Shown here in pieces: positions 1-61,569 of a stretch of 64,000 nucleotides of DNA. Under the pieces are notes generated by a model. It did not search any database. It saw only the letters and a program-made list of their open reading frames with translations, and was not told where the DNA came from. The first letter of the stretch is position 1, and every line of letters starts with the position of its first letter. Source of the DNA: an uncultured Verrucomicrobiae bacterium (GTDB lineage: Bacteria > Verrucomicrobiota > Verrucomicrobiia > Limisphaerales > UBA11358); NCBI GenBank assembly GCA_963738245.1, contig CAVTWB010000010.1, positions 161,603 through 225,602 on the forward strand. Direction: 5' to 3'. The position numbers were made by a program, and so were the translations under genes.

Positions 1-996
1 TCATCCGTCCAGTGCGCCGGATGAGTGTAAAGCAGGCGGATCCAGAAATCGCCTTTCAACGAATTCAGCTCGCGCAGCAGCGTGCAAATGGTTGCGGCAT
101 CGGCGGGCAGCGATTTGGCGGCGGCGGAAAATTTCTCCGGCGACGAAATCGCGCGCGAATGGTTCGGGCGCAAATCGAGACCGTAATAAGTCGAATCCTG
201 CGAAATCAGATTGATTTCCTTCACGCCATCGGCAATCAAGGCTTTTGCTTCCTTGACGATGTCGCGTTGCGTCCGGCTGCGGTGCGAGCCACGCATCCGG
301 GGAATAATGCAGAAGCTGCACGGATGATTGCAGCCCTCGGCGATTTTCAGATACGCAAAATGTTTCGGCGTCAGCCGGAAGCGCGGCGTGCTAAAATCGG
401 GGATGAAAACCGGGCGCGCGGTCACGTCCAGAATTGCGGATTGGGGCACGATGACGGTTTTTGTTTTCCCGAATTTGTCCGTGCCGCGCAGGGATTCTTC
501 TTTTTCGAGGGCGGACAAGTCGCGGGATTTTTCCAGTTCGTTCAAACGCGAAACAACTGTGCCTTTCTGGACTTTGGGCTTTGGGCTTTGGATTTTGGAC
601 TCCCGGTTGGCAATCGCCTTGCCCACGATGTCGCCGACCTGCGCGACCTGGTCAATGCCCATGAACGCGTCCACTTCGGGCATGAGCTTGGGCAGCTCCT
701 CGCGAAACCGCTGCGAGAGGCAGCCGGAAACGATGACGGCCTGGCCGCGCCGGCTCGCGTCGCGCAACTCGACGGATTCAAGAATGGTGTCCACGCTTTC
801 TTCCTGCGCGGAATCAATGAAGGAGCAGGTATTGACGATCACGGCATCGGCCTGCGACGCGTCGTTCGTGATCTCCACGCCGCTTTTCATCAACGAGCCG
901 AGCATGATTTCTGCGTCCACCAGATTCTTGGCGCAGCCGAGCGAAATCAAGCCGACGCGCAACGGACGGTTTTTTAATTTTTTGTCTTCAGTCACG
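1..996 (-). CDS. rimO: ribosomal protein S12 methylthiotransferase RimO (3' end runs off the window; 5' end frame-broken as assembled)
   Basis: The minus-strand frame is open from 974 to 3. It reads RVGLISLGCAKNLVDAEIMLG...IVSGCLSQR...YLKIAEGCNHPCSFCIIP (radical-SAM CxxxCxxC)...THPAHWTD. A plausible N-terminus VTEDKKLKNRPL (GTG at 996) is in the neighbouring frame, implying one extra base near 958-962. Confidence 0.85.
567..599 (-). repeat. 33-nt four-heptamer word element (CCAAA-type variant) in-frame inside rimO
   Basis: The coding strand reads TCCAAAA TCCAAAG CCCAAAG CCCAAAG TCCAG, which is 4x7+5 nt and encodes SKIQSPKPKVQ. It lies within a roughly 50-aa K/E-rich linker expansion between the MTTase N-domain and the radical-SAM domain. 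Confidence 0.7.
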
Positions 997-11164: not shown

Positions 11165-11250
11165 GTTAAATCGTTAAATCGTTACTTTGTTAAATCGTTG
11201 CACCGGGATTTGCCGAACCGGTTTAACGATTCGACCATTCAACAATTTAG
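11165..11250. repeat. inverted pair of tandem-word arms (gttaaatc words)
   Basis: gttaaatc gttaaatc gttacttt gttaaatc gttgcaccgg ... ccggtttaacgattcgaccattcaacaattt. Occupies the spacer between two minus-strand genes. Confidence 0.6.
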
Positions 11251-47312: not shown

Positions 47313-47393
47313 CGGATTGATGGATTATTGGATGAATGGATTGCTGAAAGGCTGCCAATTCATTTATCCACCAATCCTAACATCCGTTCATCC
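47313..47393. repeat. inverted pair of four-word arms (ggattgat-type 8-mers) downstream of purH
   Basis: ggattgat ggattatt ggatgaat ggattgct ... caattcat ttatccac caatccta acatccgt tcatcc. Confidence 0.65.
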
Positions 47394-54001: not shown

Positions 54002-54891
54002 ATGTTAAAACGCAAAGAACTGCCCGTTGCGCTCACCATCGCCGGCTCGGACAGCGGCGGCGGCGCGGGCGTTCAGGCCGATCTGAAAACGTTTGCCGCG
54101 CTTCGGCGTCCACGGCACCAGCGCGATTGCCTGCCTCACCGCGCAAAATCCAAAACAGGTTTTGGCGGCCGAGCCGTGTTCGCCCAAAATGCTGCGGCGG
54201 CAGATCGAAGCCGTGTTTGCCGAACTGAAACCGGCGGCGGTGAAAACCGGAATGTTGTTTTCGGTGGAAAACATTTCCGTCGTCGCGGATTTCTACCGCA
54301 ACTCGAAACTGAAAACTAAAAACTCAAAACTGATCGTGGATCCGGTCATGGTATCCACCAGCGGCGCTAAATTGCTCCAGCCGGCGGCGGTAAAAATCCT
54401 GACGGGAAAAACTGCTGCCACTGGCCGCGCTCGTCACGCCGAATCTGGACGAGGCGGAAATTCTGGCGGAACAAAAAATTTCGTCGCCGGAGGATTTGCG
54501 TGCCGCCGCGCGGAAAATCCAGGCGCGTTTCGGCTGTGCGGTTTTGGTGAAAGGCGGCCACCTGAAAAATTCCCGCGAGGCAATTGACGTTTTCTTCGAC
54601 GGAGAAACGGAACTGCTGCTGTCCGCTCCGTTTGTGAAGGGCGTTTCGACGCACGGCACCGGCTGCACTTATTCCGCCGCGATTTGCGCCGCGCTGGCGC
54701 TCGGCCACGATTTGCCGCACGCGGTGGAGATCGGGAAAAATTTCATCACGGCAGCTATCGCCGGCAGCTTCCGCATCGGAAAACATTTCGCGCTCGGATA
54801 TTTTCCGCTCAAAGATCCGGCCAGCTCAACTGGTAAAACTGGTTCGCATTTGTCGCGTTCAGGAAAATGTAATTGCTGCCGTTCGCGATGA
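54002..54891 (+). pseudogene. thiD: hydroxymethylpyrimidine/phosphomethylpyrimidine kinase ThiD, two +1 frame breaks as assembled; true 3' end uncertain
   Basis: [24 protein letters not shown] | [15 protein letters not shown]...KTGML...IVDPVMVSTSGAKLL... | LLPLAALVTPNLDEAEIL...VLVKGGHL...GTGCTYSAAICAALA. There is an extra base near 54101-54105 and one in the A-run at 54407-54411. Confidence 0.85.
54300..54332 (+). repeat. 33-nt four-heptamer element E1, in-frame in thiD
   Basis: AACTCGAAACTGAAAACTAAAAACTCAAAACTG encodes [11 protein letters not shown] directly before the conserved IVDPVM. Confidence 0.85.
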
Positions 54892-56563: not shown

Positions 56564-57307
56564 ATGTCCGACACGCTCGTCGTCAACGAAGTCTATTTGA
56601 GCCTGCAGGGTGAAAGCACCTTCGCCGGGCTGCCGTGCATTTTCATCCGGCTCACCGCGTGCGACTTGCGCTGCTCCTACTGCGACACCGCCTACGCCTT
56701 CACCGAAGGCAAAAAGAAAACGCTCGCGGAAATTCTGGCGGAAGTCCGTCGGCAGGCCGCGCCGTTTTTGAATTCAAAATTAAATATTCAAAATTCAAAA
56801 CTGCCCTTGGTGGAACTGACCGGCGGCGAGCCGCTGCTCCAGAAAAATTCCCTGCCGCTGATGAAATCGCTCTGCGACGACGGCTTCACCGTTTTGCTCG
56901 AGACCAGCGGCGCGCATGACATTTCCAAAATTGACCCGCGCGTCCGCCGCATCATGGACTTGAAATGCCCGTCCAGCGGCGAAGTTGCCCGCAACCGGTT
57001 TGAAAACATTGCGCACCTGAAAGCCACGGACGAAATCAAATTCGTCATCGGCACGCGGGAGGATTATGATTGGGCCAAGCTGCAAATTGCCGAGCACCAG
57101 CTTGCTTCCGTCTGCCCGCTGCTGTTTTCCTGGGTGCATCCGCTCACGCCGGCGCAGCAGAGCAAGGTGCTCAAAAAAGTTCCCGCCGGGCACACGCCGA
57201 TTTCCCGCCGGGAGCTCGCGGAAAAAATCATCGCCGACGCGCTGCCGGTGCGTTTCCAAATCCAGCAGCACAAAATCATCTGGCCGCCGGAACAGCGCGG
57301 CGTTTAG
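56564..57307 (+). CDS. queE: 7-carboxy-7-deazaguanine synthase QueE (radical SAM)
   Basis: VNEVYLSLQGESTFAGLPCIFIRLTACDLRCSYCDT...ELTGGEPLLQ... Confidence 0.88.
   Translation: MSDTLVVNEVYLSLQGESTFAGLPCIFIRLTACDLRCSYCDTAYAFTEGKKKTLAEILAEVRRQAAPFLNSKLNIQNSKLPLVELTGGEPLLQKNSLPLMKSLCDDGFTVLLETSGAHDISKIDPRVRRIMDLKCPSSGEVARNRFENIAHLKATDEIKFVIGTREDYDWAKLQIAEHQLASVCPLLFSWVHPLTPAQQSKVLKKVPAGHTPISRRELAEKIIADALPVRFQIQQHKIIWPPEQRGV
56771..56803 (+). repeat. 33-nt four-heptamer element E2, in-frame in queE
   Basis: AATTCAAAATTAAATATTCAAAATTCAAAACTG encodes NSKLNIQNSKL directly before PLVELTGGEP. Confidence 0.85.
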
Positions 57308-57308
57308 C

Positions 57309-57388
57309 AATTTACGATTTACGATTGCCGATTTACGATTGGCAAAACAGCGGCGCGTAAATCGTAAATCAAAAATCGTAAATTCGTG
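57309..57388. repeat. inverted pair of 33-nt four-heptamer arms (atttacg words) filling the queE-aminotransferase spacer
   Basis: AATTTAC GATTTAC GATTGCC GATTTAC GATTG gcaaaacagcggcg CGTAAAT CGTAAAT CAAAAAT CGTAAAT TCGTG. The right arm includes the GTG start at 57386. Confidence 0.75.
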
Positions 57389-57714
57389 ACCACAACAGAG
57401 ACTTTTCAATTACTCCGCGACTACGAATCGCGCAACATCGTGTTCATTGAGCCCGACGGCTCGTGGCCGATTGTCTGGGAACGCGCCAAGGGCGTTCACG
57501 TCTGGGATGCGGAGGGCAAAAAATATCTGGATCTGACCGCCGCGTTCGGCGTCGCCGCCGCCGGCCACGCGAATCCAAACGTCGTTCGCGCCGGGACAGA
57601 AACAGATGGCCAAACTGCTGCACGCGATGGGCGATGTGCATCCGCACGCGCTCAAGGCCGAACTCGCGCGGGAATTGAGCCGCATCACTTTCGAGCGGTG
57701 GAGCAGCCTGTCAG

Positions 57715-57747
57715 AACTCAAAACTAAAAATTCAAAATTCAAAACTG
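57715..57747 (+). repeat. 33-nt four-heptamer element E3, in-frame in the aminotransferase but in a different codon phase
   Basis: AACTCAAAACTAAAAATTCAAAATTCAAAACTG is read as (E)LKTKNSKFKT(G) directly before KVIFSNSG. Confidence 0.85.
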
Positions 57748-58448: not shown

Positions 58449-58483
58449 AATTCAAAATTCAAAATTCAAAATTCAAAATTCTG
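58449..58483 (+). repeat. 35-nt variant E4 of the four-heptamer element, coinciding with an aminotransferase frame break
   Basis: AATTCAAAATTCAAAATTCAAAATTCAAAATTCTG. Compared with the canonical ...CAAAACTG end it has 2 extra nt (TT at 58479-80). Confidence 0.8.
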
Positions 58484-61465: not shown

Positions 61466-61515
61466 ATTGTTATATCGCCCGCAAAATTTCGATTCAACGA
61501 TTCAACAATTTAACC
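61444..61515. repeat. inverted pair of tandem-word arms overlapping the nudix 3' end
   Basis: cgttaaatcgttgaagtgttgaattgtt ... tcgattcaacgattcaacaatttaacc. The left arm encodes the last residues FVKSLKC*. Confidence 0.6.
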
Positions 61516-61569
61516 ATTCAGCGATTCTTCCACACTTTACTTGCGGCGAAAATGGAGTAGTTATTTCCC

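Follow-up and report, generated by a model that had tools for sequence, protein, structure and literature searches.

A heptanucleotide array translated within the RimO linker of an uncultured Verrucomicrobiae bacterium is likely an in-place simple sequence repeat that changes by whole units under a reading-frame filter

Results

The rimO locus and its heptanucleotide array

The DNA analysed here (64,000 nucleotides, referred to as the window) begins within the 5' part of a rimO gene, which occupies positions 1–995 on the minus strand, starts with a GTG codon at 995 and runs past the window start. The complete ORF, located at 825–2495 of the extracted locus L001, encodes a protein of 556 amino acids (aa). 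Pfam analysis of this ORF revealed a UPF0004 domain (PF00919, E 7.5e-26), i.e. the MTTase N-terminal domain, at aa 14–113 (window 657–956, minus strand), and a Radical_SAM domain (PF04055); translation, Pfam and alignment with a solved structure place the start of the radical-SAM core and its CNHPCSFC motif at aa 218 onward (window 1–344, minus strand). The closest solved structure was that of T. maritima RimO (4jc0, E 1.7e-91), with MiaB far behind (E 4.4e-44). The radical-SAM core, in which the CxxxCxxC motif is present, aligns to 4jc0 residues 131–384, and a third stretch of the protein aligns to residues 382–426, corresponding to the C-terminal TRAM domain. As judged from its sequence, the predicted product agrees with RimO in every feature tested, namely the N-domain, the radical-SAM core, the TRAM domain and a closer relationship to RimO than to MiaB.

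Between the N-domain and the radical-SAM core, the gene carries a heptanucleotide tandem array, designated site 1 (window 567–601, minus strand; aa 132–143). On this strand positions 599–567, preceded by (A)G, read TCCAAAA TCCAAAG CCCAAAG CCCAAAG TCCAG, and in the rimO frame gag TCC AAA ATC CAA AGC CCA AAG CCC AAA GTC CAG is translated as E SKIQSPKPKVQ. Tandem Repeats Finder (TRF) reported the array at 568–601 with a period of 7, 4.9 copies, 85% matches and a score of 47. The pattern (YCCAAAR)x3 gave three overlapping matches at site 1, where 0.03 were expected from 100 shuffles, and was absent from the rest of the window. The repeat at 599–567 and its peptide SKIQSPKPKVQ, both described in an earlier note on this DNA, were thus confirmed by the sequence, by TRF and by the shuffles; the K/E/S-rich stretch mentioned there (ESKIQ...GKTKT) was found at 602–456 as claimed, and the placement of the repeat between the two domains was borne out by Pfam and the 4jc0 alignment. 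The ends of the array are fuzzy, its length being 33–35 nt depending on the register, and the value of 33 is not sharply set. No inverted partner or hairpin was found for the array in window 300–900, that is, within 300 nt of it. Nor does the array carry the four GGG or GGGG tracts typical of a G-quadruplex, as its TCCAAAG and CCCAAAG units (complement CTTTGGA and CTTTGGG) hold at most one GGG each, and this in two units only.

The linker that harbours the array measures 82 aa compared with 21 aa in 4jc0, the alignment of the N-domain ending at query residue 123 (chain residue 110) and that of the core restarting at query residue 205 (chain residue 131). From DAFMGID to RFRLTPKHF the distance is 105 aa in this protein and 98–129 aa in the seven further orthologues that this alignment includes from the order, as opposed to 43–61 aa in RimO of other orders in the class and phylum (25 genes); the linker is therefore indeed shorter in distant homologues, as the earlier note had it. 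The long type was found in every orthologue from 24 genomes of the genus and from 16 further families in the order, the ORFs measuring ∼540–600 aa. The order in question is Verrucomicrobia subdivision 3 (Pedosphaerales/Limisphaerales), whose named records include Pedosphaera and Limisphaerales MAGs from soil, peat, lakes and groundwater. According to the alignments and an AF2 model, the order-specific insertion comprises ∼60 aa (window 426–605, minus strand) with a conserved core, RLNELEK..EKEESLRGTDKFGKTKT, between two variable segments, and across the order this core is kept as RLNELEK...HEKEESLRGTEKFGKTKT. On the strength of these alignments, the linker expansion is an old, order-level character. 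As the expansion is common to the whole order and has a conserved core, it was not created by the repeat, and the view of a ∼50-aa expansion produced by the repeat had to be given up. It had further been proposed to align RimO orthologues and to look for a linker shared at full length and with conserved sequence: the long linker and its core are kept throughout the order, but the segment under the array is hypervariable in sequence.

The AF2 model, calculated for the 331 aa encoded in the window (mean pLDDT 62), predicted helices at residues 114–135 and 144–156 with a pLDDT of ∼70, and the array corresponds to the end of the first helix and the loop before the second, likewise with a pLDDT of ∼70. 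Residues 161–210 had values below 50. The model thus supports disorder for residues 161–210, though not clearly for the array itself. Two other insertions relative to the T. maritima protein were noticed, one of ∼22 aa in the radical-SAM core (aa 277–300, window ∼96–167, NHSRAISSPEKFSAAAKSLPADAAT) and one of ∼25 aa before the TRAM domain (aa 482–506, beyond the window), both of which are conserved throughout the order.

The array sites in related genomes

In an alignment of 29 orthologues, the hypervariable segment at site 1 was very often found to consist of a heptamer array with another word, and always in frame. Within the genus, a perfect (AAGTCAG)x5.4 array was present in G003, (GAATTCA)x4.4 in G008, (GAAAGCG)x4.6 in G007 and (AAAGTCC)x4.4 in G012, while other families carried (CCAGAAG)x3, (AAGGCAA)x4 and (AAGCCCG)x3, and words of the TCAACNN and AAAATTN types also occurred among the orthologues. 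In a RimO tree built without the linker, the sister genomes G000 (this genome) and G003 (support 97/89) carry different words, and so do G008 and G010 (support 93/89), which are joined by very short branches. Period 7 was detected at site 1 with at least 14 matched positions in 23, and at least 10 in 28, of the 81 species-level orthologues; none of the other periods from 3 to 12 gave 14 or more matched positions there, with period 9 reaching 10 in one orthologue, and a control segment from the N-domain showed a period-7 array in none of the orthologues. The rimO alignments were made without L024, L064 and one of L119–L198, for which extraction gave no ORF.

The site 1 segment is 24–30 aa long, and in orthologues devoid of an array it is as long as or longer than in those bearing one, so that no insertion footprint in the form of a length difference between filled and empty sites was found among them. 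The lengths vary by 1–6 aa and never by 7. Evidence for unit steps at this site consists of 5.4 versus 4.4 units with an offset of 1 nt. The words found at site 1 differ from one another by a mean of 2.71, as against 3.03 for random in-gene words of this genome (p ∼0.013, relatedness ignored), a likeness too weak to be taken as proof of in-place descent, though the word may plausibly have drifted gradually in place.

A second array position in the linker, site 2, follows KFGKTKTV. In many relatives it holds arrays such as (CCATCCT)x4.1, (ATCCCGC)x4.4, (AACTCAA)x4.4, (CAATCGG)x4.6 and others, and in the present genome a collapsed array, CAATCCG CAAT, located within PQSAIL (window 433–443, minus strand) and corresponding to 1.6 units of AATCCGC. 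Three states of site 2 were observed between near-identical flanks. The interval ACCGTC..TTCTGGA measures 19 nt in G000 (1.6 units, in frame) and 40 nt in L130 (4.6 units, in frame, with an additional 21 nt encoding 7 aa, IRNPQSA), and the 4.6-unit array is found in L128 as well. In G016 the interval is 33 nt (3.6 units, +14 nt) and the frame is broken at the array. The rimO frameshift in this genome (G016:C303, L117, ∼820–870) coincides exactly with (AATCCGC)x3.6, an array that exceeds the G000 state by 14 nt and falls 7 nt short of the one with 4.6 units. The assembly consists of 360 contigs, and the allele is either genuinely broken (or ‘off’) or the result of a slip of the assembly in the repeat. 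Copy number at site 2 thus varies between relatives by whole units (1.6, 3.6 and 4.6), and these alleles are direct evidence for whole-unit change and for a frame filter that leaves states three units apart. Arrays of alternating words (A B A B), namely TCAACGC TCAACAT x2 and CAATCGG CAATCGC x2, were encountered at both linker sites and point to 14-nt duplications.

Heptanucleotide arrays in the genome

The assembly, which represents a soil or freshwater bacterium, comprises 3.44 Mb in 18 contigs and has a G+C content of 57.5%. A genome-wide search yielded 93 tandem runs of period 7, as against 1–13 for each other period between 1 and 15. Perfect period-7 arrays of at least three units numbered 75, with 41 of 3.x, 30 of 4.x and 4 of 5.x units. 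No perfect period-7 array of six or more units was present in the genome. The shuffles gave no perfect array of three or more units, and other periods gave almost none. A typical array has 3–5 units, with a ceiling at ∼5.4. The array lengths extend over 21–38 nt (21–37 nt for the perfect arrays, with a flat distribution between 21 and 33 nt), and a length of exactly 33 nt was found in only 4 of the 75 perfect arrays; the strict rule of ‘4x7+5 = 33 nt’ put forward in the earlier note was therefore rejected. The words are many, AAATCGT being the commonest, followed by AAAATTC, ACCCGTC, AATCCGC, ACTCCGC and others, and most are without G-runs. The rimO array, with head-to-tail 7-nt units beyond chance and a genome-wide excess of the same period, has the properties by which long simple sequence repeats (LSSRs) were tested here.

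Approximately 61 of 297 period-7 arrays detected by TRF lie inside coding sequence, a census that rests on a crude gene map of our own based on ORF scoring. By the same rough map, the ratio of 4.x to 3.x arrays was 36:11 in coding and 38:44 in intergenic sequence (odds ratio 3.8, p 0.0009). Ten proteins bearing in-gene arrays were examined using Pfam. Nine were recognized as ArgJ, GlnRS, NadE (NAD synthase), MutL, a zinc ADH, a GT9 heptosyltransferase, an aminotransferase, Sua5 and PdxJ, and the tenth had no Pfam match. In NadE the array is situated between the two domains of the protein, and in MutL just past the DNA_mis_repair domain. In PdxJ the form with an array exceeds the one without, which is apparently ancestral, by 4 aa (12 nt). 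Much larger inserts of 10–22 aa at the array site are carried within the genus by the PdxJ orthologues L077, L083, L085, L086 and L088, partly composed of (CTCTCGA)n, and one PdxJ with a large insert (G011) has a TAG inside the match.

Near-identical arrays of 28–31 nt were found in three genes of this genome, at C10:162174–162201 (window 572–599, rimO), C12:136415–136442 (mutL) and C9:8285–8312 (an ADH-like gene). The rimO array matches that of the ADH-like gene at 30 and that of mutL at 29 of 31 nt, and the rimO and mutL arrays are read in the same frame, giving ESK[IV]QSPKPKV. Orthologous arrays of other species are less alike, and this likeness between three unrelated genes within one genome suggests an exchange between arrays. 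The zinc-ADH-like gene (C9:7573–8754, L203; orthologues L041 and L099–L116) has four in-frame array sites, which are kept between G000 and G003 with different words at each. The site following KKFGAKW has an entirely different content in each of 20 genomes of the genus, including hairpins of an array plus its inverted partner that are translated in frame.

Discussion

We consider it likely that the array in rimO is an in-place heptanucleotide simple sequence repeat which is translated and which gains and loses whole units by slippage under a reading-frame filter. The observations underlying this reading are the repeat itself, its genome-wide class, the conservation of the site in spite of a turnover of its words, the unit-step alleles and one frameshifted allele. 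This genome, its genus and the order would be prone to form 7-nt tandem arrays of ∼3–5 units, and in RimO such an array would sit in a weakly constrained, order-specific linker and merely be translated, presumably into a neutral peptide. Strand slippage, the molecular process that we infer, would add or remove whole units, with variant units spreading or vanishing within the array, and in genes only those states that keep the downstream frame would last. Since 7 and 3 have no common factor, states that are in frame should lie three units apart (21 nt, or 7 codons) or be accompanied by a compensating indel. Such a filter may also underlie the preference for 4.x units in genes, which would be what the earlier note captured as ‘4x7+5’. 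A heptamer array yields the same cyclic 7-aa peptide in any frame, and therefore only stop-free words with tolerable (K/S/P/Q/E-rich) residues would survive on the coding strand. The array shows no sign of a special role and is probably functionless.

A universal rule of ‘+3 units’ was rejected, as it holds at rimO site 2 but PdxJ differs by 12 nt. The 12-nt difference in PdxJ and the steps of 1–6 aa at site 1 therefore require extra indels or another process. The ceiling of ∼5.4 units in intergenic arrays lies outside what a frame filter explains.

The near-identity of the rimO, mutL and ADH-like arrays raises the possibility that the array is a copy of a dispersed element, i.e. one half of a heptamer hairpin of the MITE or REPIN kind, that spread by insertion or ectopic gene conversion, an origin that we regard as unlikely. 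It would account for the order of units TCC, TCC, CCC, CCC, TCC that the three arrays share, while the rimO and mutL orthologues elsewhere have other orders, and for the ADH-like copy having an inverted partner 10 nt away, another word at the same site in the G003 orthologue and a wholly different site content in each of 20 species of the genus. Of 61 genomes of the genus, 23 carry the word AAGTCAG (x3) at 1–3 loci and none carries the reversed control word; the vocabulary is therefore restricted and shared. Dispersed near-identical copies within one genome (29–30 of 31 nt) are what a mobile element should leave, but at rimO the other marks of a mobile palindromic element were not found: there is no palindrome, no inverted partner within 300 nt and, with array-bearing and array-less segments of equal length, no insertion footprint. 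Besides, arrays of the TCCAAAG type occupy the rimO site in many species as well as in other families of the order, which speaks for an old array, and the MutL array, which does not follow the rimO word, has been retained in G000, G012 and G003, where it has undergone ordinary point changes. A genome-wide co-variation of words, with rimO and mutL sharing one, was not seen, since G003 has AAGTCAG in rimO and TCCCAAG/CCCAAAG in mutL. Rickettsia palindromic elements (RPEs) are palindromic mobile insertions of ∼100–150 bp that lie in frame in protein genes and are polymorphic in presence or absence. The rimO array resembles them in that repeat DNA is translated into extra loop residues of housekeeping proteins, but it differs in being a 33-nt tandem repeat with neither a palindrome nor an insertion footprint. 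With slight probability, array sites, including those in essential genes, may instead be fixed ‘slots’ into which a new word is written time and again, in ∼4.5 units, by something other than plain slippage. Such rewriting might draw on other arrays as templates, or on a repair or polymerase function that works in a 7-nt register. If true, slot rewriting would explain the restricted vocabulary, the three near-identical arrays, the replacement of words between sister species and the ceiling of ∼5.4 units outside genes. The generic, non-mobile mechanism advocated in the earlier note accordingly remains the better reading for rimO, in view of the many words at the site and the unit-step alleles at site 2, but some copying between loci is possible given the 31-nt sequence present in three of them.

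Two functional explanations appear very improbable to us. One is a contingency switch, in which slips of one or two units would frameshift rimO ahead of the radical-SAM domain and thereby turn the methylthiolation of S12 off and on; a unit length that is not a multiple of 3 and the G016 gene, which loses its frame through 14 extra nt precisely at site 2, would fit such phase variation. However, the array has only 4–5 units, G016 provides the one frameshifted allele among ∼120 rimO orthologues, and in the ∼120 other genes the frame is kept across both arrays, the few interruptions (G018, L181 and L191) being error-like, away from the arrays or ambiguous. Similar arrays in ArgJ, PdxJ and the GlnRS gene, the last expected to be essential, would make switching off costly or lethal, and nothing was seen that connects the arrays with surface, restriction or antigen genes. 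Equally improbable is a selected K/S/P-rich peptide, for example a basic flexible tether docking RimO on the ribosome or uS12, to which the nucleotide period would be incidental. The hydrophilic, lysine-rich composition is kept across words, as in SKIQSPKPKVQ, KVRSQKSEVRSQK and IESGKRKAESGK, and in the AF2 model the segment falls at the end of a helix and in a loop, predicted with moderate confidence (pLDDT ∼70). Against this, the peptide is replaced outright from one sister species to the other with the nucleotide period remaining exactly 7, the same peptide is found in the MutL linker, and some orthologues have, in place of a repeat, an unrelated sequence of equal length.

In itself, the rimO array belongs to a known class of repeats, among which it is nothing out of the ordinary. 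Of the LSSRs of repeat-rich prokaryotes, those with heptanucleotide units are the most frequent, and it has been suggested that they arise when the polymerase slips in a 7-nt register (Mrazek, Guo and Shah, 2007, as summarised in PMC4679880). The tandem 7-nt units, the excess of period 7 and the many loci described here agree with that summary, as would slippage in a 7-nt register. The same survey, in the accounts given by PMC4679880 and PMC4692102, found coding-region SSRs to have mostly units of a multiple of three, whereas in the present genome about one-fifth of the heptamer arrays lie in frame in genes, several of them core metabolic or informational. As far as our literature search reached, Verrucomicrobia subdivision 3 was not found among the lineages described with LSSRs.

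In Xanthomonas and Nostoc, GGGNATC repeats tend to have four units, a preference attributed to G-quadruplexes; they stay at the same positions from one species to the next and are depleted in genes (Rehm et al., 2015; PMC4692102). The arrays described here resemble these GGGAATC and GGGGA(C/T)T repeats in being heptamers of about four units at kept positions with length differences, and in occurring both singly and as inverted pairs (PMC4692102). They differ in comprising dozens of words that are mostly not G-rich (TCCAAAG, AAATCGT and AAAATTC, for instance); G-quadruplex formation can therefore not explain the four-unit preference here, and, with about one-fifth of the arrays in genes, the G-quadruplex account of PMC4692102 does not transfer. 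Dispersed short heptamer runs are also known as the TAACTGA repeats of marine Beggiatoaceae (MacGregor, 2015; PMC4679880) and as the cyanobacterial STRR of Calothrix (in PMC4692102), which resemble the present arrays in having a few copies inside ORFs, mostly outside functional domains, but consist of one or a few fixed words that for the most part precede start codons and for which a role in regulation was proposed. In its forward orientation, TAACTGA has stops in all frames (PMC4679880).

The rimO linker offers a clean and datable example of this repeat class, with two array sites in one conserved gene that can be followed through ∼120 genomes of the order. Together the two sites show persistence of the site, turnover of the word, alleles exactly three units apart and a frameshifted intermediate. 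They make the proposal of replication slippage in a 7-nt register testable, and offer a testable reason, other than G-quadruplexes, for the clustering of in-gene arrays near four units. For annotators, such in-gene runs represent translated repeat DNA rather than protein motifs, and are likely sites of real or apparent frameshifts.

Some minor observations were made in addition. In L181 and L191 the radical-SAM motif is missing from the rimO ORF, which could reflect a frameshift or truncation, and the frame breaks of rimO in G018 lie away from the arrays; one G018 break examined looks like a single-base error, and the G018 breaks were excluded from the evidence. A 222-nt block at C12:150049–150270 consists solely of long A, T and A homopolymer runs and probably reflects either an error of assembly or a highly unusual tract. 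Within the window, further period-7 arrays of 4–5 units with AT-rich words were found at 54306–54333, 56771–56800, 57310–57383, 57711–57746 and 58449–58481, and 8-mer arrays at 11165–11199, 47314–47342 and 61490–61527. The AT-rich arrays of period 7, and some of period 8, cluster at 54–62 kb; they are the arrays to which the description of a ‘33-nt architecture’ had referred, and their actual lengths are 28–36 nt. Those at 57310–57340 and 57356–57383 form an inverted pair (ATTTACG/CGTAAAT).
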